Virus record (IMG/VR): IMGVR_UViG_3300022841_000014
Location: 2,724 to 66,723 of that record
Source: a virus
Direction: 5' to 3' (one strand)
DNA: 64,000 nt
This document shows, in pieces, positions 1 through 28,206 of the stretch. Position numbers and translations under genes: made by a program. How positions within the stretch are numbered: the stretch's first letter is position 1; every line of letters starts with the position of its first letter. Below the pieces are notes generated by a model. That model was not told the DNA's origin. It saw nothing but the letters and a program-made list of their open reading frames with translations, and ran no database searches.

Positions 1-317
1 ACATGAGTGTTGTTCACAACATTCTTAACGGATCTGACGATCTAGTTGCACCAGTTGCAACAGTTAAGTTAGCAATGGCAGCATAATGCCAATGGTGAAA
101 AAAGCATCGTAGTAACCATTATGTAGTAACTTATCACAGGATGCTTGATATTCTGGTATGTCCAGATAGACCCGAAGTACATTAGTATAGTGAAGCTGTA
201 TGATAAGTTAATTTAGTATGAGTAACTAGTGTAGAAGAAAACTATAAATTGAAAAACTGTATAATTTATTAATAATCAAATTGTTGGGACAGGGGTTCGA
301 CTCCCCTCAGCTCCACA
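1..317 (+). ncRNA. ssrA: tmRNA, 5' end outside window
   Basis: Tag-like frame ending ...VKLAMAA-TAA (stop 84-86). 3' tRNA-like domain GAC-AGGGG-TTCGACT-CCCCT-CAGCTCC-A (288-315) with U70 and A73 alanine identity elements. Confidence 0.88.
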
Positions 318-493
318 GACTTCGCCGTCTAAAAAGCTGCGCCAGCAGGATATCTGGCAAATATAACATCATCCAAAGTTTTTAACACTTTTATAGATTT
401 GGGAAAGGTTATGTATCAAAAGTGTAGTACATTGCAATTGATAAGGCTTGCATATATTATGTGAGCTTTTATCTAAATAAAAAATAAAATAAA

Positions 494-645
494 TATTCAT
501 TAGCTCAGTCAGGTAGAGTACTTGTATCAAATAACGCTACCAATGATTACTATAAGGAACTTTTTTATTTAAAGTTGCTAGATTTAATTTATTATAGATA
601 ATAGTGAATCACAAGAAGACACTGGTTCAAATCCAGTATGAATAT
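494..645 (+). tRNA. tRNA-like gene with 85-nt insertion in the anticodon loop (identity undetermined)
   Basis: Acceptor TATTCAT/ATGAATA; D-arm GCTC-AGTCAGGTA-GAGT; anticodon stem CTTGT (521-525)/ACAAG (611-615); T-arm ACTGG-TTCAAAT-CCAGT; loop 526-610. Confidence 0.75.
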
Positions 646-675
646 TTTTTAACAATTAACTTAAACAATTTAACC

Positions 676-873
676 ATGAATCAATCAACAATAGCTGTAA
701 TGGCAGAAAAAAGAAGAGAAAGATTAGCTAAAGTAGCTAAAATGACTTACATAGGAACTAGACCTACTTGCAAATCAGTAAGAGTAATAGCTAGTAATGT
801 AAGATGGAATAGAATAAATAACAGAATGAGAGCAGAAACTATTTCAGATATTTCTTTGTTTGAAACAATTTAA
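676..873 (+). CDS. small basic hypothetical protein
   Basis: The ORF-track start at 604 overlaps the tRNA; ATG at 676 is more plausible. Confidence 0.6.
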   Translation: MNQSTIAVMAEKRRERLAKVAKMTYIGTRPTCKSVRVIASNVRWNRINNRMRAETISDISLFETI

Positions 874-1002
874 ATTCTATTTTTAATAACAATATAAAAA
901 CTATAACATCGGGATTTCTATCTATCTATCCCACTTCTTTAAATCAAGTTCATACTTGAAAGGTGTTATAGTTTGATATTGTTAATAATTAAAATTAAAA
1001 AC

Positions 1003-1296
1003 ATGAAAAATGAAATAGAAATATTAAATAAAATTAATATTGTTAAACCAGTATTAAATGAATTATCAGAAAATATTGATTTTATATTTTATGAAACAAT
1101 TAGAATATTTACTGACAGTACAATAGTTATGTTTTCAATTACTATTACCTATTTAAATATGGCTAATAATGCTCAAATAGTTTATGATAAATTTATTATT
1201 AATTCTTTTATTAAAAGAAATAAAATAGATGGTATTACAATAACTAAAAGTAACGAAGAAGGTAGAAATTTTATTGAAATAATAATAAATACGTAA
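1003..1296 (+). CDS. hypothetical protein
   Basis: ORF with ATG at 1003 after an A-rich leader. Confidence 0.6.
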   Translation: MKNEIEILNKINIVKPVLNELSENIDFIFYETIRIFTDSTIVMFSITITYLNMANNAQIVYDKFIINSFIKRNKIDGITITKSNEEGRNFIEIIINT

Positions 1297-2170: not shown

Positions 2171-4099
2171 ATGAAAAAACAATGAAGTAACAAAACTTAC
2201 ATATACGATTTAGAAACATATAAAGATTTATTTCTTGCTGTGTTTAAGAATATAGAAACTAATGAGTTTTGAAGATTTGAAATTAACAAATACAAAACAG
2301 ACATAGTAAAACTTTACGAGTTTCTTAATCAAAGAAACATGACTTTAATAGGTTATAATAATGTTAATTTTGACTACCCAGTCTTACATAACACTATACT
2401 TAAAGTTAAAAGAAAATGAACATCTGAAGAGATATACAATGAAGCACAAAATGTAATACAAGCTGATTATTCTGCAATATGGGATAATCAAGTTAAGATA
2501 TCTCAAGTAGATCTTTTTAGGATTAAACATTACGATAACAAAGCACGTAGAACGTCTCTTAAATGGCTTGAATATGCCATGAGAATGGATAATATACGTG
2601 ATCTTCCTTATCCACCAGACAGTGATCTTACAAAAGACATGATGTCTGAAATAATATCTTATTGTGACCATGATGTAAATGCTACACATTTATTTTATAA
2701 CAAATGTCAAAAAGAAATTGAGCTAAGGCTTCAGTTATCTGAGGAATATGGTTTAAATTTAATAAATGCTAATGACCCTAAAATTGGTAGTGAAATATTC
2801 TTAGATTTATTATCTAAAGAAATGAATATTAAAAAGAAAGAATTATCAGAGAAAAGAACTTATAGAAAATCAGTTATATTTAATGATATAATACTTGACT
2901 ATATTAAGTTTGATTCAAAAGAAATGCAAAAAGTTCTTTTTAATTTTAAATCATATGTATCAAAAGATACTAAAGGTGAATTTAAATTTAGTGGTAAGAT
3001 AGGTAACATTATTAATGATTTTGGTCAAGGTGGTATACATGGTTGTACTAAACCTGGAGTGTATGTAAGTGATAAAACTCATGTAATCATAGACATTGAC
3101 GTAGCAAGTTACTATCCTAACTTAGCTATTAACAATGAATTTAGACCAAAACACTTAGGAGAAGCTTTTAGTAAAATTTATAAAAGTATATATGAATTAA
3201 GAAAGACATTTCCTAAATCAGATCCACGTAATGCAGCTTGTAAATTAATGCTCAATGGTTCATTTGGTAAAATGAATGATATGTATAGTTTTTTGTATGA
3301 TCCCAAATGTCTGTTAAGTATTACTCTTAATGGTCAATTACTTTTAGCTATGCTTATGGAGAAAATATTTAAACATGTTAATGATATTACATTTTTGCAA
3401 TCAAACACTGACGGTTTTACTTTTATTATAAAGAGAACTGATGTAGATTACATGAAAAAGATAGTTACATCCTGGGAAAATAAAACTAATCTTGTAATGG
3501 AATATGCTGTTTATGACAAAATGATAATACGAGATGTTAATAATTACATGAGTATTACTGATACAGGTTATACTAAATACAAAGGTGCTTTTGAAATGGA
3601 TAGGGATTATAACAAAAATCATAGTAAAAGAATTGTAGCTATTGCTTTAGCTAATTATTTTGCAAACAATGTTAGTCCTGAAGATACTATTTATAATCAT
3701 TTGTCAAATCATTCAACATCAGAGAATTATACTTTTTGTGAAAACTACGGTATTCACGATTTTTGCTTAGGTGTAAAGATGACAGGTGATAATAAACTCG
3801 TTGAAAGGATTGTAAAAGACTATGAGCCAGAAGATCATGAATTAGGTAAGGTAACTAGATATTTCGTTTCTAACGATGGTGAAATGCTTGTTAAAAAGTT
3901 ACCACCATTGCCTGATAAAATACCTACATTACAAATAAACATATTTGGTGAGATAGATATGGGTGATAGAGAATCAAGTATTGAAGCTGGTTATAAAACA
4001 ACAGTTTTTAATCAGTATTACAACAATGATAATTATAATATAGATTATAACTATTATTTAAGAGAAGTTAATAAAATTATTAACGTAATTAAAAATTAA
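2171..4099 (+). CDS. polB: family B DNA polymerase (642 aa with TGA readthrough at 2183, 2270, 2417)
   Basis: Exonuclease motifs YDLET and IGYNNVNFD lie in frame upstream of the track ORF; polymerase motifs DIDVASYYPN, KLMLNGSFGK, NTDG. Confidence 0.92.
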
Positions 4100-4780: not shown

Positions 4781-5368
4781 ATGAAATTATGAGATATAGA
4801 AAATTTATCATTTAATTTTAAAGACATTAAGTTACTTGATATAAATATTAATCAATTAATGTGTATTATAAAAATATATTTAAGCTCAAATAAAATTTAT
4901 TTTGATTATGACATGAACAAAGCTTACATTAATGACCTTATTGAAAAACAGTATTTAATATCTGATTCAAAAGGATTGTATCTTAGAGATAAAGGTAAGA
5001 AAGTTATTAAAGTATTTGTCAAAATAAAAGAAGATAGTAGAAAAGAAGAAGAATTAGATAATCAATTAAAAACATATAGATCTTTATTTAAAGATATAAA
5101 AGTTGGTTCAATGGGTTCAGGTCTTTCTACTAGAAAAAAATTACAAAGGTTTATGGATTCAAATCCAGACGTAACTTTTGATGAATTAATAAATGCAACT
5201 GAAATGTATATTGAAAATTTCAATGGTAATTTTAAATTCATACAAAGAGCAGATTATTTTATATACAAACAGAATTACAAAGGAGAAGAAACTTCTAATT
5301 TGGAAATATGGGTAGAGCAATCTAAAAAAGAACCAGAAAATTCAGATTGGACAACAGAATTAAAATAA
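4781..5368 (+). CDS. putative replication-associated protein (initiator/helicase-loader-like), TGA at codon 4 (4790)
   Basis: ATG AAA TTA TGA GAT... continues in frame into the 4859 ORF; lies upstream of DnaB. Function is inferred only. Confidence 0.6.
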
Positions 5369-6405: not shown

Positions 6406-7107
6406 ATGTCAAAATTAGTAAAATGCGTAAGAGAAAACAATTATAATCTTACATTAAACAAAGAATACGAAGCAACAGTTGATGTTAATAACGGAAACCG
6501 TTATAATTTAATAAATGATCGTAATATTGTAGGTAGATATGGTACAAACATATTTGAAGATGTAATAGAAGAAGTGATTCCAGTAGCACCGCCTGCACCT
6601 GTTAAAAATACAATTGAACATATTTTACATAATATTAATAATGTTAATGGTTCTTTTGTTGTTGAAATTTTTCAAGGTCAAACTGCTAATATTCATAAAG
6701 GTATATTTAATACACATGCTTGTGATATAAGTTGCGGTTTAACTTCATTTAGTGGAATTACAAATATATATAGAGGAATTTCTGACAATGTTGGTGTTTT
6801 AGAGTTAACTCAAGCTGAAAAAATTGCTTTAACTAATAGATTATATTTATTAATGTTAACTGAATTTTTAGACACTATTACTGTAGGTGGTGCAATAGCA
6901 TCTACAAATACTAATTGTCAAGGTTTTGAAAATATGGATGAAATTATATCAACTTTTAATGTTAGCTCTTCTAGAATGGATAATCCTAATAGTGGTAATG
7001 AAATCATTGTTTATGTTTTTAATTTAGAACAAGATTTAGATGAAGAAGATGAAGAAGATTTTGATATGGTTGAAGAAAATGATGATTTTGAAGATGTACT
7101 TGAATAA
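6406..7107 (+). CDS. hypothetical protein with acidic tail
   Basis: 233-aa ORF, Pro-rich linker, D/E-rich C-terminus. Confidence 0.7.
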   Translation: MSKLVKCVRENNYNLTLNKEYEATVDVNNGNRYNLINDRNIVGRYGTNIFEDVIEEVIPVAPPAPVKNTIEHILHNINNVNGSFVVEIFQGQTANIHKGIFNTHACDISCGLTSFSGITNIYRGISDNVGVLELTQAEKIALTNRLYLLMLTEFLDTITVGGAIASTNTNCQGFENMDEIISTFNVSSSRMDNPNSGNEIIVYVFNLEQDLDEEDEEDFDMVEENDDFEDVLE

Positions 7108-7137: not shown

Positions 7138-8268
7138 ATGCAAAAAGAAGAATTAGACAATTATGGTAGATTAAAAAAACATTTATGAAATAGAAGAGAA
7201 AATATAATATCTGGAAAAGCAAATTGTATACCCTTTGGACTACCTCGTTTTGAAGAAGTGGTTCCTGGTATACAACAAGGTAAAATGACTCTTGTTACAG
7301 CTAGTACTAAAGTTGGTAAAACAAAAGTTACAGATAATTTGTATATGTATAATCCTATTAAATGAAAGTTACAAAATCCTGAAAGTCCTATTACATTAAA
7401 AATAGTGTATTTTACATTAGAAATGTCTGAACGTCAAAAAATGACACAGGCTGCTTGTAATAGGCTTTTTACTACATCAAAAGGTAATATAAGAATAGAT
7501 CCTGTTAAATTACAATCTACTCGTGGTGCTGTTAGTGAAGAAATACTGTTAGAAATAGAAAAACAAAATGAATATTTTGAATTTTTTAATAAAACTGTAA
7601 CATTTATAGACAACATTAAACATGCTTACGGTATAATGAGGTATATGGATGATTACGCTAAGGCTAATGGTACTACTTATTATAAAACAGTTACTTTTAA
7701 AGATAATAAAACAGGTGAATCTAAAGATCATGAAGTATTTGATTATTACAAAGCAGATAGACCTGACGAGTATGTTATTATAATAGTTGATCACATATCT
7801 CTTTTATATCCAAAAAAAGGTAGTACTTTACATCAAGAAATATCAGATCTTTCTTCTAAATATTTTATACAACTTAGAAATAGATATAATTATAGTCCAG
7901 TTATTGTGCAGCAACAATCCGCAGCTTCAGAATCTCTTGATAATATGAAAGCTAACAGGTTAAAACCTAGTTTAGTAGATATAGCTGATAATAAGTTAAC
8001 TAGTAGAGATGTAGATTTAGCATTAGGTTTATTTAGTCCTTACAGACATGGTATAAGAAAATATCCTGAAAAAGACGGCTATAACATTGAAAAATTCAAA
8101 GACAATATAAGATTTTTAGAAATTTTAGCATGTAGAGATGGTGGTGGTAACACTGTTTGCCCTTTGTATTTTGATGGTGCAGTTGATTTTTTTAAAGAAT
8201 TACCTTTAACTAATGATGAAAAAGGAATAAAATCAGTATATAATATGCTTAACAAAATTAGAGAATAA
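7138..8268 (+). CDS. dnaB: DnaB-like replicative helicase (TGA readthrough at 7186, 7363)
   Basis: Walker A ASTKVGKT lies between the two TGAs; YFTLEM, IIVDHISLL and VIVQQQ motifs follow. Confidence 0.9.
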
Positions 8269-22987: not shown

Positions 22988-23563
22988 ATGAAAAAAAATA
23001 TTAGTCATGGTTATGTTTTACCTATAATAACACAATGAGTTGATATAAATTCAAATATACAATCTCATATAATAAACACTTATTTATTTTCTAATTTAGA
23101 TTCTAAAATAGGTAAGTTTTATATTGAATGTAATTTTAATTACAGAGATGTTAAATTTACAGAAAAAGAAAATATACTTACTGACAATGATGTATATGTA
23201 AAATCTTATTCTGTTAATGCTAATGTTATTTATGAATATAAAATACCAGAAGAATATCATGAAGATATACTTAAATTGATAAAAGGTAATTATTCTAAAC
23301 TTTCAGATGATTACAAAATGCAAATTAAGAAATACTGAATAGAATTATATGGTAAAATACCAGGTTTTGTAAATTCAACTATTAAAAGATTTGATGATAT
23401 ATTTAACAAAAATGACAAGTTAAGAGAAAAAATGGAAAAAGATTTAAATGTCAAATTATCTAAAAATAGTGAACTTGGTCAATTGTTAAATATTAACAAT
23501 GAAACTTATGAGTTTCAAAACAATAAACAAATAAATTTAGAAAATATTTCTGATATATTCTAA
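22988..23563 (+). CDS. hypothetical protein (191 aa with TGA readthrough at 23036, 23336); absent from the ORF track
   Basis: ATG 22988 to TAA 23563 open except for two TGAs; fills the gap exactly. Confidence 0.75.
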
Positions 23564-23591
23564 AAAACAAAAACTTAATTCTAATAAAGAT

Positions 23592-23894
23592 ATGGAATAT
23601 AGTAAATTACAACCGTTAGTAGTAAAATGAGGAGCAGACAAAGGTATTCTTGAAAAAGCAACACCTATGGCTCAGGCTATCAAAACATTAGAGGAAGTTA
23701 ATGAACTTCTTGATGCAATAAACAAAAATGATAAAGAAGAAATCAATGACGCCCTTGGTGATATTTTGGTAACAATCATTTTACAAGCAGAATTACAAAA
23801 TGTAAATTTAACAGATTGCCTTGAAGGTGCTTATAATATTATAAGTAAAAGAACTGGTAAAATGCAAAATGGAGTATTTGTAAAAGATGCTTAA
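23592..23894 (+). CDS. MazG-like nucleotide pyrophosphohydrolase (TGA readthrough at 23628)
   Basis: VVK*GADKGIL..ATP.AQ..KTLEEV.E...DALGD; TGA at the family's N-terminal Trp. Confidence 0.88.
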
Positions 23895-23916
23895 CAAAAC
23901 GGTAAAAGATAGAAAA

Positions 23917-24099
23917 ATGAATAAAATTAAAACAAACACTGGATTTAAAGGAATTACTAAAAGAACAAACACTGGTAATTTTGAAATTAGAGTCAATGTA
24001 AAAGATAATTCTAAAGCAACAAGCTTTTATGTAGGTATAGGAAAAACTCTACAAGAAGCAGTAACAAGAAGAAATAACTTTATTAAAAATCTAATTTAA
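23917..24099 (+). CDS. stand-alone AP2-like DNA-binding protein
   Basis: NTGFKGI...FEIRV...YVG..KTLQEAV..RN. Confidence 0.6.
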   Translation: MNKIKTNTGFKGITKRTNTGNFEIRVNVKDNSKATSFYVGIGKTLQEAVTRRNNFIKNLI

Positions 24100-25073
24100 T
24101 GAATATATTTAAAAAAAGAAAAAACGTGTTACCTTATGAGTATCCCGAATTACTTAAATATAAAAATGCAATAAGGCATTCATACTGAATTCATACTGAG
24201 TTTAATATTACAGAAGACATTTCTGATTTTATGACTAAAGTTACAGACAGTCAACGTGAAGCAATCAAGCGATCCATGCTTGCAATTGCTCAGATAGAAG
24301 TTAACGTGAAAGCGTTTTGGGGTGATCTGTATAAACGTCTACCAAAATATGAAATTCAATCAGTAGGAGCTACATTTAGTGAGAGTGAAGCTAGGCACTT
24401 TGATGCTTATAAACACTTACTTGAAGTTCTTGGCTTAGAAAGTGAATTTGAAACAATTACCGATGTACCAGCTATTAAAGATAGGATTTCTTATCTTAGT
24501 AAATACCTTGATGGAACTAGAAGTAAAAGTGATAAGATGTATACAAAATCTATCCTTTTATTTAGTCTATTTATAGAACACGTTTCTTTATTTAGCCAGT
24601 TTCTGATAATGATGTCATTTAATAAAGAATTAAATTTATTTAAAGGAGTGTCAAATATAGTAGAAGCAACCAGCAAGGAAGAAGATGTACATGGTAATTT
24701 TGGTATTGAATTAATTAATATTATTAAAAAAGAAAACCCTGAATGGTTTGATAAAGAATTTGAAGAAATAATTAAATCTGCATGCGTTAAGGCTCTTGAA
24801 GCCGAGTGTAAAGTTTTGGATTGGATTTTTGAAAAAGGTGAACTAGATTTCTTATCAAAGGAAACAATTACTGAATTTATTAAAAACAGGTTTAATAACA
24901 GTTTAGAAAGCATTGGAATGAGTAAAGCTTTTGAGGTCCAAACTCAAAAGTTAGAAAGTACAATGTGGTTTGACGTTGAAATTAAATCAACCAAAGAAAG
25001 TGATTTCTTTTATAAAAAAAGTATTGATTATAACAAAAAATCAGAAAGTATAACAGAGGACGACTTGTTCTAA
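24099..25073 (+). CDS. nrdB: class I ribonucleotide reductase beta subunit (TGA readthrough at 24186)
   Basis: AIRHSY*IHTEFN; metal-ligand motifs EARH, IEHVSLF, EEDVH; DFF. Confidence 0.93.
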
Positions 25074-25126
25074 CAAAACTATTAATGGTTATGTTAATAT
25101 AGTCATTAATGTTATATAAAAATTAA

Positions 25127-26761
25127 ATGAATAAAACAGATAGATATTATTGGCTTAACGAAGAGTCAAGAAAATTTCTTTCTCGTGGATACTTAAGAGA
25201 AGGGGTATCTCCAGAGCAAAGAATTAAAGACATAGCAAATCACGCAGAAAGAATACTAGGAGTAAAAGGCTGAGCTGAAAAATTTGAAAACTATATGGCT
25301 TTAGGTTATTATAGTTTGTCAACTCCTGTATGGTGTAATTTTGGATATGAAAAAACTTTACCTATAAGTTGTTACGGATCTGACATTGATGATACGATGG
25401 ATAGTATTCTAAATGGAGCAAGAGAAATAGGTATGATGTCTAAATACGGTGGTGGAACATCCATGTACTTAGGTAACATTAGAAAACGCGGTTCGTCAAT
25501 CTCAGGTGGTGGGAATGCGGATGGACCTGTTCACTATGCAAAAATCTATGATACAATTATAGATAAATGTAAACAAGGTGAATCAAGAAGAGGAGCTTGT
25601 GCTTTATACCTACCAGTAGAGCATGAAGACATAATGGAGTTCCTTAGAATTGGTGACGAAGGAAATCCAATTCAGAATCTTCAATTTGGAGTCACGGTCA
25701 CGGATGCGTGGATGAATTCTATGAAAGAAAGTGATACTGATAAAAGAAAAATATGGGCTAAAATTATACAGAAACGTAAAGATTTTGGTTTTCCATATAT
25801 TATGTTTAAAGACAATTCCAATAACAATAGTCCATACAAAGAATTAGGACTAGATATTAAAGCTAGTAATCTTTGTTCGGAAATACAGCTACCACAGGAC
25901 AGTTACAACAGTTTTGTTTGTTGTTTAGGTAGTATCAATTTACTTCATTGGAAAGAAATTGAGAAGACTGATGCTGTAGAAACTTATATTCAATTCCTTA
26001 ATGCAGTAATAGATGACTTTATCATAAAATCTGAGCACCTTCCTGGTATGAAGAGAGCTTGGAGATTTGCTAAAAACCATAGAGCCATCGGGCTTGGCGT
26101 ACTAGGTTGGCATTCATTTCTGCAAAGTGAATTATTAGAAGTTGATAGTATAAAGGCTAAATATTGGAATAATGTAATATTTAAAGAAATAAATGAAAGA
26201 TCACAAAAAGCAAGTAAATGGTGTCATGATTTTTTAGGAAAAAAATCTATACGAGAAGGATATGCTAATACAACGGTAATGGCAATTGCACCAACTAAAA
26301 GCTCATCATATATATTAGGACAGGTTAGTATGGGTATTGAACCAATAAAATCTAATTATTTTATAAAAGATTTAGCTAAAGCTAAAACTGTATACAAGAA
26401 CGAAATGTTGAGAGCGCAACTCCAACAGTACAATCTTGATACACCAGAAACATGGAATAGTATTCTTGATAATGATGGTAGTGTTCAACATTTAGATTTT
26501 CCTACAAAGGAAGTATTTAAATCGTTTATTGAAATTTCACCAAGAGAACTTGTGTTACAAGCAGCACAAAGACAAAAATATATTGATCAATCACAATCAT
26601 TAAATTTAATGATACACCCTTCAGTACCAGCAAAAGAGATAAATAAACTCTATATGTATGCTTGGGAATCAGGAGTAAAGACCTTGTATTATCAATTTAG
26701 TCAAAGCGCAGCACAAAGTTTTGCAAGAGAAATAAATGACTGTGATTCATGTCATAGTTAA
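25127..26761 (+). CDS. nrdA: class I ribonucleotide reductase alpha subunit (TGA readthrough at 25271)
   Basis: PISC, GGGTS, RRGA, SNLCSEI, IAPT, IDQSQS, KTLYY, C-terminal CxxC. Confidence 0.93.
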
Positions 26762-26808
26762 TAAATTAAATTAGCTTAAAGGCTGGGTGGGATGGTGGTA
26801 ATTAGATT

Positions 26809-26982
26809 ATGGAAAAAAAGGAAATAGTTGAAAAACTAAAACAACACAATTTATTATGGATAGATTTTTACAAATGGGTAACGAATCAAAAATCAGAATC
26901 AGAAAAAGTTTTGTATTATATTCACGATGTAGATCAATTTATAGCTTTAAAAACAGTAGGCTTAAACAGTTACTGAAATTAA
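26809..26982 (+). CDS. small hypothetical protein (TGA at 26974, two codons before TAA)
   Basis: ATG 26809 ... TAC TGA AAT TAA. Confidence 0.5.
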
Positions 26983-27018
26983 TTATAAATTTTCATATTA
27001 AAATTAATAAGCATAAAC

Positions 27019-28206
27019 ATGGATAAAAGAGATAAAATCCAAAAAGAAGCTTTAATAAAATGAATTGTTAATAAAAAAGGAACTGTTTGTCTTGCAACAT
27101 CATTAGGTAAAATGTTTGTATTTTTACATGCATTACATACGATGAATGTTAATGATGATATTCATTTGTTTTTAGCAGAAACAACAGCAAGAAAAATAGA
27201 TTTACTAAATTCTATTAAAGCTTTTGATGAAAAATTTAATAAAGAAACAATGAATACTTATAATCTTAAGTTTTATTGTTATCAAACAGTTTACAAATGA
27301 AGAAATAAATCATTTGGATTAGTAGGTTGTGACGAAATTCACATGCAACTTACTTCTTCTTATGTGCAGTTTCATAAATTTAACAAAGCAAAAGCAGTTT
27401 TAGGTTTATCTGCTACTATTGATAGAACAGTTGAATACGAAGATGGAGGTATAATTGTTACTAAAGGTCAATATTTAGATAAATATGCACCTGTATGTTA
27501 CACGTATAGCTTAGATAAAGCTCGTATAAACGATATTAATAGAGAAGTGGACATACATATCATTTACAATGAATTAGACATTGTAAAGAAGTCTGTTAAG
27601 AGCGGTAATAAAGCTAAACCTTTTTATCAAACAGAAGAAGAATCTTACAAATACTGAAATAAAAAATTAGGACAAAGCATGTTTGCTGGTCCTGAAAAAA
27701 AAGATTTATTTGCTAGATTAGCTATTGGAGGTAGAAGTAGATTACTATATAATTTACCTAGTAAAACTGTATTAATTAATAAATTATTACCTCATCTTAA
27801 TAATGTATTAATTTTTGGTAATTCTATTGATAGTTTATTAACTGTTACTAATAATGTTATTTCTTCACGTAATAATGAAAAGAAAAATAACTTTATTAGA
27901 AATCAGTTTGAAACAGGTAAGGAAAATGTAATTGCTAGTTTTAAAATGCTAGAACAAGGTGCTACTATTCAAGGTATGGAAAACCTTATTATGATGTCTT
28001 ATTATAGTAAATCATTAGGTGCTGTACAAAAAATGGGTAGACATAGACGTATAGGTGACACTAAAGGTAAAGCTTTTATAATAGTTACAAAAAACACACA
28101 AGAAGAAAAATGGTTAGCTAAATTTATAGGAAATTTTAAATCTTATAATATTATTAATCATGAAAATGTAAATGAATGCATAAAATACTTAAAAAATGAA
28201 AATTAA
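27019..28206 (+). CDS. superfamily 2 (DExH) helicase (TGA readthrough at 27061, 27298, 27655)
   Basis: Three track ORFs share one frame; motifs ATSLGK, DEIH, LSAT, LEQG, QKMGRHRR. Confidence 0.9.

Follow-up and report, generated by a model that had tools for sequence, protein, structure and literature searches.

The first lines of this DNA raise the question of whether a transfer RNA (tRNA) gene whose anticodon loop has been replaced by a long insertion can still yield a working tRNA, and by what route. The gene is located at positions 494-645 on the plus strand of a 64,000-nucleotide (nt) stretch, here called the window, which covers 64,000 of the 66,723 bases of the IMG/VR virus record IMGVR_UViG_3300022841_000014. 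It contains a complete tRNA cloverleaf in which all four stems are paired and the anticodon loop is 85 nt long (526-610). Judged by comparison with an orthologue in a related phage, selection acts on the tRNA shape and an insert has been kept whose sequence is free to change, and the gene does not resemble a decaying pseudogene.

The acceptor stem begins with a 5' strand at 493-500, of which 494-500 pairs with 638-644 to form the usual 7 bp, and base 493 can add an eighth pair with 645. The D arm (503-519) is composed of the stem GCTC/GAGT (503-506 with 516-519), which includes a G10-U25 pair, and a 9-nt loop holding G18 and G19. The 5' strand of the anticodon stem, CTTGT (521-525), is followed by the 5' edge of the loop, A32 U33 C34 A35 A36 A37 (526-531), in which canonical numbering gives the anticodon CAA. 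An A+U-rich insert of 78 nt occupies 532-609 if the splice is placed at 37/38; alternatively, a splice at 33/34 gives an insert at 528-605 and the anticodon GAA. C38 and ACAAG, the 3' strand of the anticodon stem, lie at 610-615 (611-615 pairing with 521-525). The short variable loop AAGAC, without a class II arm, and the T arm ACTGG-TTCAAAT-CCAGT (T stem 621-625 with 633-637, T loop TTCAAAT) lie at 616-637. The 3' acceptor strand and discriminator take up 638-646, with the strand at 638-644 or 638-645 and the discriminator being U645 or U646. CCA is not encoded, and a T run comes next. The canonical nucleotides U8, A14, G18G19, A21, U33, A37, the TTCAAAT loop and the G15/C48 pair are all present. 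The original prediction, made from the letters of the sequence, had described four paired stems, an 85-nt loop and TCA triplets at both loop edges (527-529 and 609-611), and each of these details is found in the DNA.

Whether the gene is detected depends on how the programs are set. It was missed by default ARAGORN and by two Rfam runs on the entire window at gathering thresholds. With introns allowed, a check that had been proposed, ARAGORN calls a tRNA-Leu(CAA) at 493-646 and places an intron of 78 nt behind position 37, which agrees with the earlier description of a CAA anticodon lacking the variable arm of Leu tRNAs. The Rfam tRNA model RF00005 gave 40.6 bits (cut-off 29, E 7e-7) when run on 1.2 kb with lax filters; the match spans model positions 1-71 and jumps over 81 nt of the anticodon loop. 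Removal of the insert in silico led ordinary-mode ARAGORN to call a 76-nt tRNA in four of four variants (both cut sites, both phages). The transcript would fold as a normal cloverleaf plus an extra A+U-rich arm, and the precursor as a whole folds somewhat better than its shuffles (z = -2.44).

An orthologous gene was identified by a DNA polymerase profile search of IMG/VR, from which 80 loci were kept out of 556 relatives. It is present only in L011, the locus of record G001, which has 100,482 bases and terminal repeats and is rated 100% complete. The polymerase of this phage is 76% identical to that of the window. The polymerase of another locus, L001, is 81% identical over the aligned part; its contig stops short of the tRNA site, and the comparison of the tRNA gene is one of two sequences only. 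The L011 gene occupies the same place, with a tmRNA-like (transfer-messenger RNA) region and a conserved spacer before it and a homologous small open reading frame (ORF) after it. It scores 46.6 bits against the Rfam tRNA model and has a loop of 77 nt and an insert of 70 nt.

In this two-sequence alignment all 22 stem pairs are kept in both genes (44 of 44 stem cells). Eight of the 22 are changed on both sides (four acceptor, three anticodon-stem and one T-stem pair) and none on one side, so that all 16 stem base differences are compensated. The double changes affect four of eight acceptor pairs and three of five anticodon-stem pairs, and pairing is preserved in every case. The same pairing outcome was reached in only 3 of 500 shuffles, and sliding the partners abolishes pairing. 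L011 has the same D arm and T loop, and four of the five T-stem pairs also match, the fifth being the one changed on both sides. At unpaired positions of the tRNA body, counted on the alignment with the insert excluded, 24 of 25 bases are identical. The 5' edge of the loop reads AUAGAA in L011, and A32-U33 and a purine at 37 are kept in both genes. Because the stems co-vary without breaks and the D and T arms match, a selected RNA is indicated rather than a decaying pseudogene. Decay to a pseudo-tRNA had been named beforehand as the outcome that would speak against the gene; the cloverleaf of the orthologue points the other way, but there is no conservation of sequence in the insert.

As far as these searches go, the family consists of two members, in the window and in G001. 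The 21-mer TTAGCTCAGTCAGGTAGAGTA from the D arm occurs in only one other IMG/VR record, G001, and in no bacterial or archaeal genome contig. Three DNA patterns searched in IMG/VR gave no match beyond G001 and none in genome contigs. A blastn search against 50,697 phage records returned just short chance matches or generic matches to tRNA arms. Protein-anchored searches added two and five distant loci, all of them lacking this gene.

The insert contrasts with the body that carries it. Some 80% of its bases are A or U, and it is not alignable with the insert of L011: the local score of 27 compares with 24.9 +/- 4.6 for shuffles, and 165 of 500 shuffles score at least as high. What the two loops have in common is limited to their first 10 bases, identical at 8 positions, and to short collinear words. 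Internal pairings had been reported in the insert, and they exist: TGATTACTAT (544-553) is complementary to ATAGTGAATCA (601-611), and an AACTTT/AAAGTT hairpin is present. They are no better than chance, however; for the arm 521-615 the folding z-score is -0.89, 36 of 200 shuffles do equally well, and the outer helix proposed earlier is absent from the minimum-energy fold. Rfam finds no family over the insert except tRNA at E up to 10. No antisense target of the insert stands out in the genome, the best matches being 14-17 nt in A+T-rich DNA. Direct 4-nt repeats flank the insert, ATCA here and TAGA in L011 (by eye). A mobile element was considered and dropped, as no second copy of the insert was found in the contig, where other matches are 17 nt or shorter. 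A tmRNA-like tag frame within the insert, which by eye reads GTFLFKVARFNLL* in the window gene and GSRHLIILFI* in L011, was also dropped because the gene lacks the alanine identity pair. The window gene as a whole was likewise rejected as a tmRNA, since it has no G3-U70 or any other acceptor G-U pair and Rfam calls it a tRNA, not a tmRNA (RF00023).

Among bacteria, the tRNA introns known to date belong to group I and lie in the anticodon loop, and the smallest natural group I introns are roughly 200 nt. The insert, at 70-78 nt in the two phages, was correctly judged too short for this class, and no intron family was matched at E up to 10 in window positions 1-1200. A group I intron was rejected on its far too small size, on the lack of an Rfam intron match and on the lack of any core conserved with the L011 insert. 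A self-splicing (group I-like) or self-cleaving ribozyme intron is accordingly an extremely unlikely explanation. The position in the anticodon loop, where the known bacterial introns are found, and a twister-P1-like match elsewhere in the contig, below its cut-off, are the points in its favour, to be set against the small size, the absence of any family match and an unconserved sequence of mostly A and U.

The explanation that is tentatively preferred, with somewhat less than even confidence, is a functional phage tRNA with a fast-evolving, intron-like insert of about 78 nt that is excised by host enzymes, as in the Lak megaphages. Host enzymes are invoked because the insert is unable to remove itself and the phage has no splicing enzyme of its own. 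A host endonuclease and an RNA ligase would cut out the insert and reseal the loop, and the host CCA-adding enzyme would then finish the 3' end. The mature anticodon would be CAA, reading UUG, after a cut at 37/38, or GAA, reading UUU/UUC, after a cut at 33/34. The supply of the tRNA would become conditional on host processing. This explanation fits the canonical body, the position in the loop, the free divergence of the insert and the Lak precedent; divergence is expected of an intron that is recognised by proteins via the tRNA body.

Several results weigh against excision. The mature 7-nt loop was taken as a prefix of the long loop joined to a suffix of it; eight joins were examined by eye and four variants were run in ARAGORN. 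Simple splices give CAA (with A37, cut at 37/38) or GAA (with U37, cut at or before 33/34) in the window gene and AGA, AGU, AUU or CUU in L011. No anticodon is common to both orthologues under any simple splice, and positions 34-35 differ between them. Bacterial tRNAs with the anticodons CAA (Leu) and AGA (Ser) carry a long variable arm (class II), which is absent from the window gene. A73 is expected in Leu, Phe and Lys tRNAs, whereas the discriminator of the window gene is U; with a 7-bp acceptor stem, that of L011 is C. Both genes could also form one more pair, -1:73, which would be A-U in the window gene and G-C in L011. The 33/34 model moreover places U at position 37 in the window gene. 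A scan for the bulge-helix-bulge motif in a strict form of our own (3-nt bulge, 4-bp helix, 3-nt bulge) gave five hits here and eight in L011, none of which leaves intact exons and a 7-nt loop. The search for RtcB or an RNA ligase that had been proposed was negative: PF01139 (RtcB), PF09414 (Rnl2-type ligase) and PF01974 (splicing endonuclease) are absent from both phage genomes, one of which is complete. RtcB was found in the control genome of Bacteroides thetaiotaomicron. Protein-mediated tRNA splicing is not known in bacteria. Near-identical DNA occurs in five DNA runs from salt-lake metagenomes (word shares of 86% and 11% in two runs), and no RNA run is among those listed as holding the window sequence. 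Of the idea of an intron-containing tRNA, then, the real tRNA scaffold with an intron-like insert stands; protein-mediated splicing is plausible, but neither a bulge-helix-bulge motif compatible with a proper tRNA nor a phage-encoded splicing enzyme or RNA ligase was found.

The source of the gene was assigned from its proteins and gene layout. The record is linear with 25.7% G+C and is estimated to be 66% complete, about one third of the genome being missing. It is from a crAss-like phage. A virion protein of 1,325 aa used as a query matched 84 phage records, headed by Cellulophaga phage phi14:2 (Crassvirales) with 42% identity, and the remaining matches were Bacteroides crAss-like phages. 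The layout is also crAss-like, with a plus-strand replication block followed by a minus-strand block with ORFs of 1,840, 2,658 and 1,613 aa. The host should be bacterial because the phage carries a tmRNA. The small subunit of ribonucleotide reductase (RNR; window 24099-25073) is very close to the structures PDB 6sf4 and 5olk (E about 1e-132), which we take to be flavobacterial enzymes and which would fit a host among the Flavobacteriia.

Both phages read in-frame TGA as tryptophan in replication genes. The family B DNA polymerase gene (2171-4099, plus strand) has in-frame TGA codons at 2183, 2270 and 2417. The phi14:2 polymerase aligns across the second and third of these with 48% identity and has Y and W opposite them, respectively; the codon at 2417 is also aligned with TGA in L011 and L001. 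Further replication-module genes with TGA lie at 22988-28206 on the plus strand (ORFs starting at 22988, 24099, 25127 and 27019), where the positions computed from codon numbers are 23036, 23336, 24186, 25271, 27061, 27298 and 27655. The ORF at 4781-5368 has TGA at 4790, and the ORF at 7138-8268 also holds an in-frame TGA. The TGA-bearing genes include those for the polymerase, both RNR subunits and a helicase-like protein. In total, 13 in-frame TGA codons occur in seven plus-strand ORFs of the window and nine in seven ORFs of G001, and seven sites, in well-conserved protein blocks, are common to both. TGA is opposite W in the block AIRHSYWIHTEFN of PDB 6sf4 and 5olk in the RNR small subunit (E 3e-132), and is aligned with W in the G001 ORF 41451 as well.

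The use of TGA is confined to part of the genome and to a few relatives. The early-gene set has 11 TGA and 68 TGG codons and the late-gene set 0 and 57, respectively (Fisher p = 0.0026). All 22 TGA codons precede A or G, against a background of 0.67, although the shared sites are not independent. A purine after a stop codon is a context that favours suppression by tRNA. No credible gene terminates in TGA. Among 83 loci with a polymerase homologue, in-frame stops were found, besides the window, only in L001 (two) and L011 (one), and all of them are TGA. The interrupted tRNA lies upstream of all TGA-bearing genes, and in G001 it is the sole tRNA-like gene found by ARAGORN on 100,000 of the 100,482 bases and by an RF00005 search of the record. 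Runs of ARAGORN at low threshold and in mitochondrial mode for other suppressors turned up nothing but poor hits without synteny; a permissive tRNA scan of our own yielded 287 mostly spurious hits and was not used. Neither phage has a cytidine deaminase (PF00383), a release factor (PF00472) or SmpB (PF01668). In the sections available of earlier reports, recoding in crAss-like phages is found mostly in late genes and goes with UCA or CUA suppressor tRNAs (PMC7886860; 10.1101/2021.08.26.457843).

Three other explanations of the interrupted gene bear on these results. An RNA of tRNA shape that is never spliced is possible but not likely; it would be a scaffolded small RNA, or it would act as a decoy that lures away host factors binding tRNA, for instance anticodon nucleases. 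The tRNA body would then serve RNase P/Z processing, CCA addition and stability, and the insert would be the working part or a block to decoding. Because the D and T arms, which form the elbow, do not differ between the orthologues, whereas the acceptor and anticodon stems have co-varied freely and positions 34-35 are not the same, selection would act on shape and not on a fixed amino-acid identity. The impossibility of a shared anticodon, a discriminator and a variable loop that fit no candidate identity under the usual rules, the possible extra -1:73 pair and the lack of splicing machinery point in the same direction, as does the adjoining tmRNA, another tRNA mimic, here and in relatives. 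An insert without conserved sequence, with a fold no stabler than chance and with no complementary target standing out in the genome, would however be unusual in a working small RNA. Both genes also retain A32-U33 and a purine at 37, and no decoy of such form was found in the literature searched. Inactivation of a tRNA gene by junk or selfish DNA, which would leave a pseudogene or a gene working only in rare intron-less variants, is very improbable. It would account for an A+T-rich, unconserved and weakly structured insert, for the 4-nt flanking repeats and for the rejection of the gene by default tRNA finders, but not for 16 compensated stem differences and nearly identical loops in the tRNA body, which are unexpected after inactivation. 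By eye, a 7-nt loop is not regained when the insert is deleted along with one copy of the repeat. The contig has no further copy of the insert, and both lineages have kept an insert.

A conditional suppressor that reads UGA as tryptophan, whose active form would depend on processing of the insert and which would gate the translation of replication genes, is considered improbable. The original prediction had raised such a suppressor as a speculative option, and it fails for want of a suitable anticodon: joining any prefix of the loop to a suffix never places UCA after U33 in either gene, and L011 has no UCA at either loop edge. The identity marks of tRNA-Trp, G73 and a CCA-like anticodon, are absent from the window gene as well. 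The alignment of TGA sites with W, the early-gene bias, the purine context and the seven shared sites would all suit a suppressor, as would the confinement of in-frame TGA to the small clade that carries the interrupted tRNA, the lack of another credible tRNA in the scanned G001 and a gene position upstream of all TGA-bearing genes. The co-occurrence nevertheless rests on two genomes of one clade, as L001 ends before the tRNA site, and the activity could instead come from host tRNA-Trp aided by a phage protein. Given that TGA is read as Trp and that no other tRNA was found in the complete relative, a link to suppression is possible. In a broader form, the interrupted tRNA may be part of an undescribed mode of reading UGA as Trp, in which conserved UGA "gates" near the starts of replication genes are opened with no UCA tRNA, either via processing into a new anticodon loop or by an action on host tRNA-Trp or termination; this too is doubtful and is put forward with little confidence.

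For the preferred explanation, excision by host enzymes, the introns of the Lak megaphages are the only published precedent found for an interrupted phage tRNA. In the parts of the reports available, these phages, which infect Prevotella, have introns in tRNA-Phe(GAA), Gly(TCC), Thr(TGT) and Tyr(GTA), and alleles that carry or lack the intron occur (PMC6784885; 10.1101/356790). According to the same text, the Lak cases resemble the window gene in that the phage has a likely Bacteroidota host and the insert lies in the anticodon loop, missed in bacterial mode and called in intron mode. No splicing mechanism is known in either case, and the introns were termed "enigmatic" by the Lak authors (PMC6784885). 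One Lak case, tRNA-Phe(GAA), is also a possible reading of the window gene. The gene fits the description of the Lak-type class, with detection under intron-aware settings only and no match to a known intron class; the comparison is one of descriptions. As far as those reports go, Lak genomes of about 540 kb have 30-35 tRNAs, one to four of them with introns, whereas the gene here is the sole tRNA-like gene found and belongs to a crAss-like phage whose genome is about 100 kb long. Lak introns are moreover reported to be identical across cohorts, whereas the insert here is unalignable between two relatives.

Other known systems share some features with this gene. As in the recoded crAss-like phages, so far as the published parts available describe them (PMC7886860; 10.1101/2021.08.26.457843), TGA is read as Trp in part of the genome, but no UCA anticodon can be formed here and the recoded genes are those of replication, not late genes. 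Literature searches brought up nothing on tRNA introns or on tmRNA in crAss-like phages, and none of the intron terms looked for occurs in PMC10879173 or PMC12386605. The gene is like a tmRNA in having a tRNA-like body with a large insert, and the adjoining gene is a true tmRNA; it differs in keeping a full D arm and anticodon stem, in having no G3-U70 pair (by eye) and in scoring as a tRNA in Rfam. Group I introns interrupt the anticodon loops of the bacterial tRNAs cyanobacterial tRNA-Leu(UAA) and Azoarcus tRNA-Ile. The window gene is likewise a tRNA gene of the bacterial world interrupted in the anticodon loop, but its insert is about one third of the minimal size, with no Rfam match and no conserved core. 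Protein-spliced introns of archaea and eukaryotes lie at 37/38, are marked by a bulge-helix-bulge and are removed by an EndA/Sen endonuclease with an RtcB or Trl1 ligase. ARAGORN places the present insert exactly at 37/38, and its sequence is free to vary, as in those introns. Unlike them, it belongs to a phage of a bacterial host, has no strict bulge-helix-bulge that leaves a proper tRNA and no endonuclease gene, and has a class I body although the anticodon is Leu or Ser. Eukaryotic tRNA-Leu(CAA) also bears an intron, according to the part of the source available (PMC1635329).

The system is small and tractable, being a phage of about 100 kb that is related to a cultured Cellulophaga phage, with a single such gene and an orthologue that evidences selection on tRNA shape. 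As both phages are without a recognisable suppressor tRNA, the interrupted tRNA is the obvious first candidate for UGA reading. Either a pathway of tRNA splicing in bacteria or an RNA of tRNA shape that does something else would be new biology. If it is an ordinary spliced tRNA, it would be one more member of a rare class.

The gene is preceded by a tmRNA gene, of which the 3' two-thirds lie in the window (1-318, plus strand; contig C1:2595-3041). It was called by ARAGORN with the tag ATVKLAMAA* and scores 58.1 bits against RF00023 (cut-off 47), and its 3' end is 175 nt from the tRNA gene. A tmRNA adjoins odd tRNAs in relatives as well. An unannotated tmRNA was identified in phi14:2 (L003:4031-4502) with 46 bits against the cut-off of 47 and the ARAGORN tag GSSVQKLAMVA*. 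The tmRNA-like region of L011 (about 6440-6850) has a frame that ends in LAMVA*, and a permuted tmRNA of 47.3 bits lies at L062:5127-5351. Right after the 3' end of the window tmRNA, positions 319-362 are richer in G+C and hold a terminator-like hairpin on the minus strand (359-340).

The spacer between the tmRNA and the tRNA (372-470, plus strand; L011:6787-6880) is conserved between the two phages and contains hairpins. Two of its 16 predicted pairs are changed on both sides, and its conservation is far above that of the tRNA insert. Hairpin pairing is kept through changes, with CCAAA/TTTGG here and CCAGA/TCTGG in L011. By eye, each phage also has a hairpin with a T run some 30 nt ahead of the tRNA. 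A promoter-like TTGCAA-17-TATTAT occurs at 432-460; as the scan gave seven sites of this kind and shuffles lead one to expect 7.4, it alone is no evidence. The twister-P1-like match mentioned above lies upstream of the window in intergenic DNA (contig C1:503-552, plus strand), with 43.6 bits, below the cut-off of 67.2 (E 1.6e-7).

Odd tRNA genes of other kinds were observed in more distant loci. A tRNA of 43.4 bits in a distant relative (L008:1648-1724) has an anticodon loop of 13 nt instead of 7 and directly follows a homologue of the gene that precedes the tmRNA of the window. Three further tRNA genes, in more distant polymerase relatives (L033:5185-5300, L062:5004-5122 and L020:2310-2422), are interrupted by about 45 nt between the D arm and an anticodon arm that looks normal; scores of 35.5 and 44.2 bits were obtained for two of them. 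Their inserts follow a common pattern of TAAA, a co-varying hairpin of 7-8 bp and then ACAGCAA. The L062 gene is 4 nt upstream of the permuted tmRNA. In L033 and L062 the tRNA gene is preceded by a conserved element of about 56 nt with weak matches (about 30 bits) to Rfam RF01414.

Minor observations concern the polymerase gene. In G001, an ORF of GIY-YIG type (motif by eye) with one in-frame TGA lies directly upstream of the polymerase (L011:8956-9609) and is absent from that place in the window. The phi14:2 polymerase (L003:9636-12081) is annotated as a join of two pieces, and tblastn places its halves in separate stop-free pieces. The loci L033, L050 and L062 also give two separate matches, and the polymerase gene of the window is continuous except for its TGA codons.
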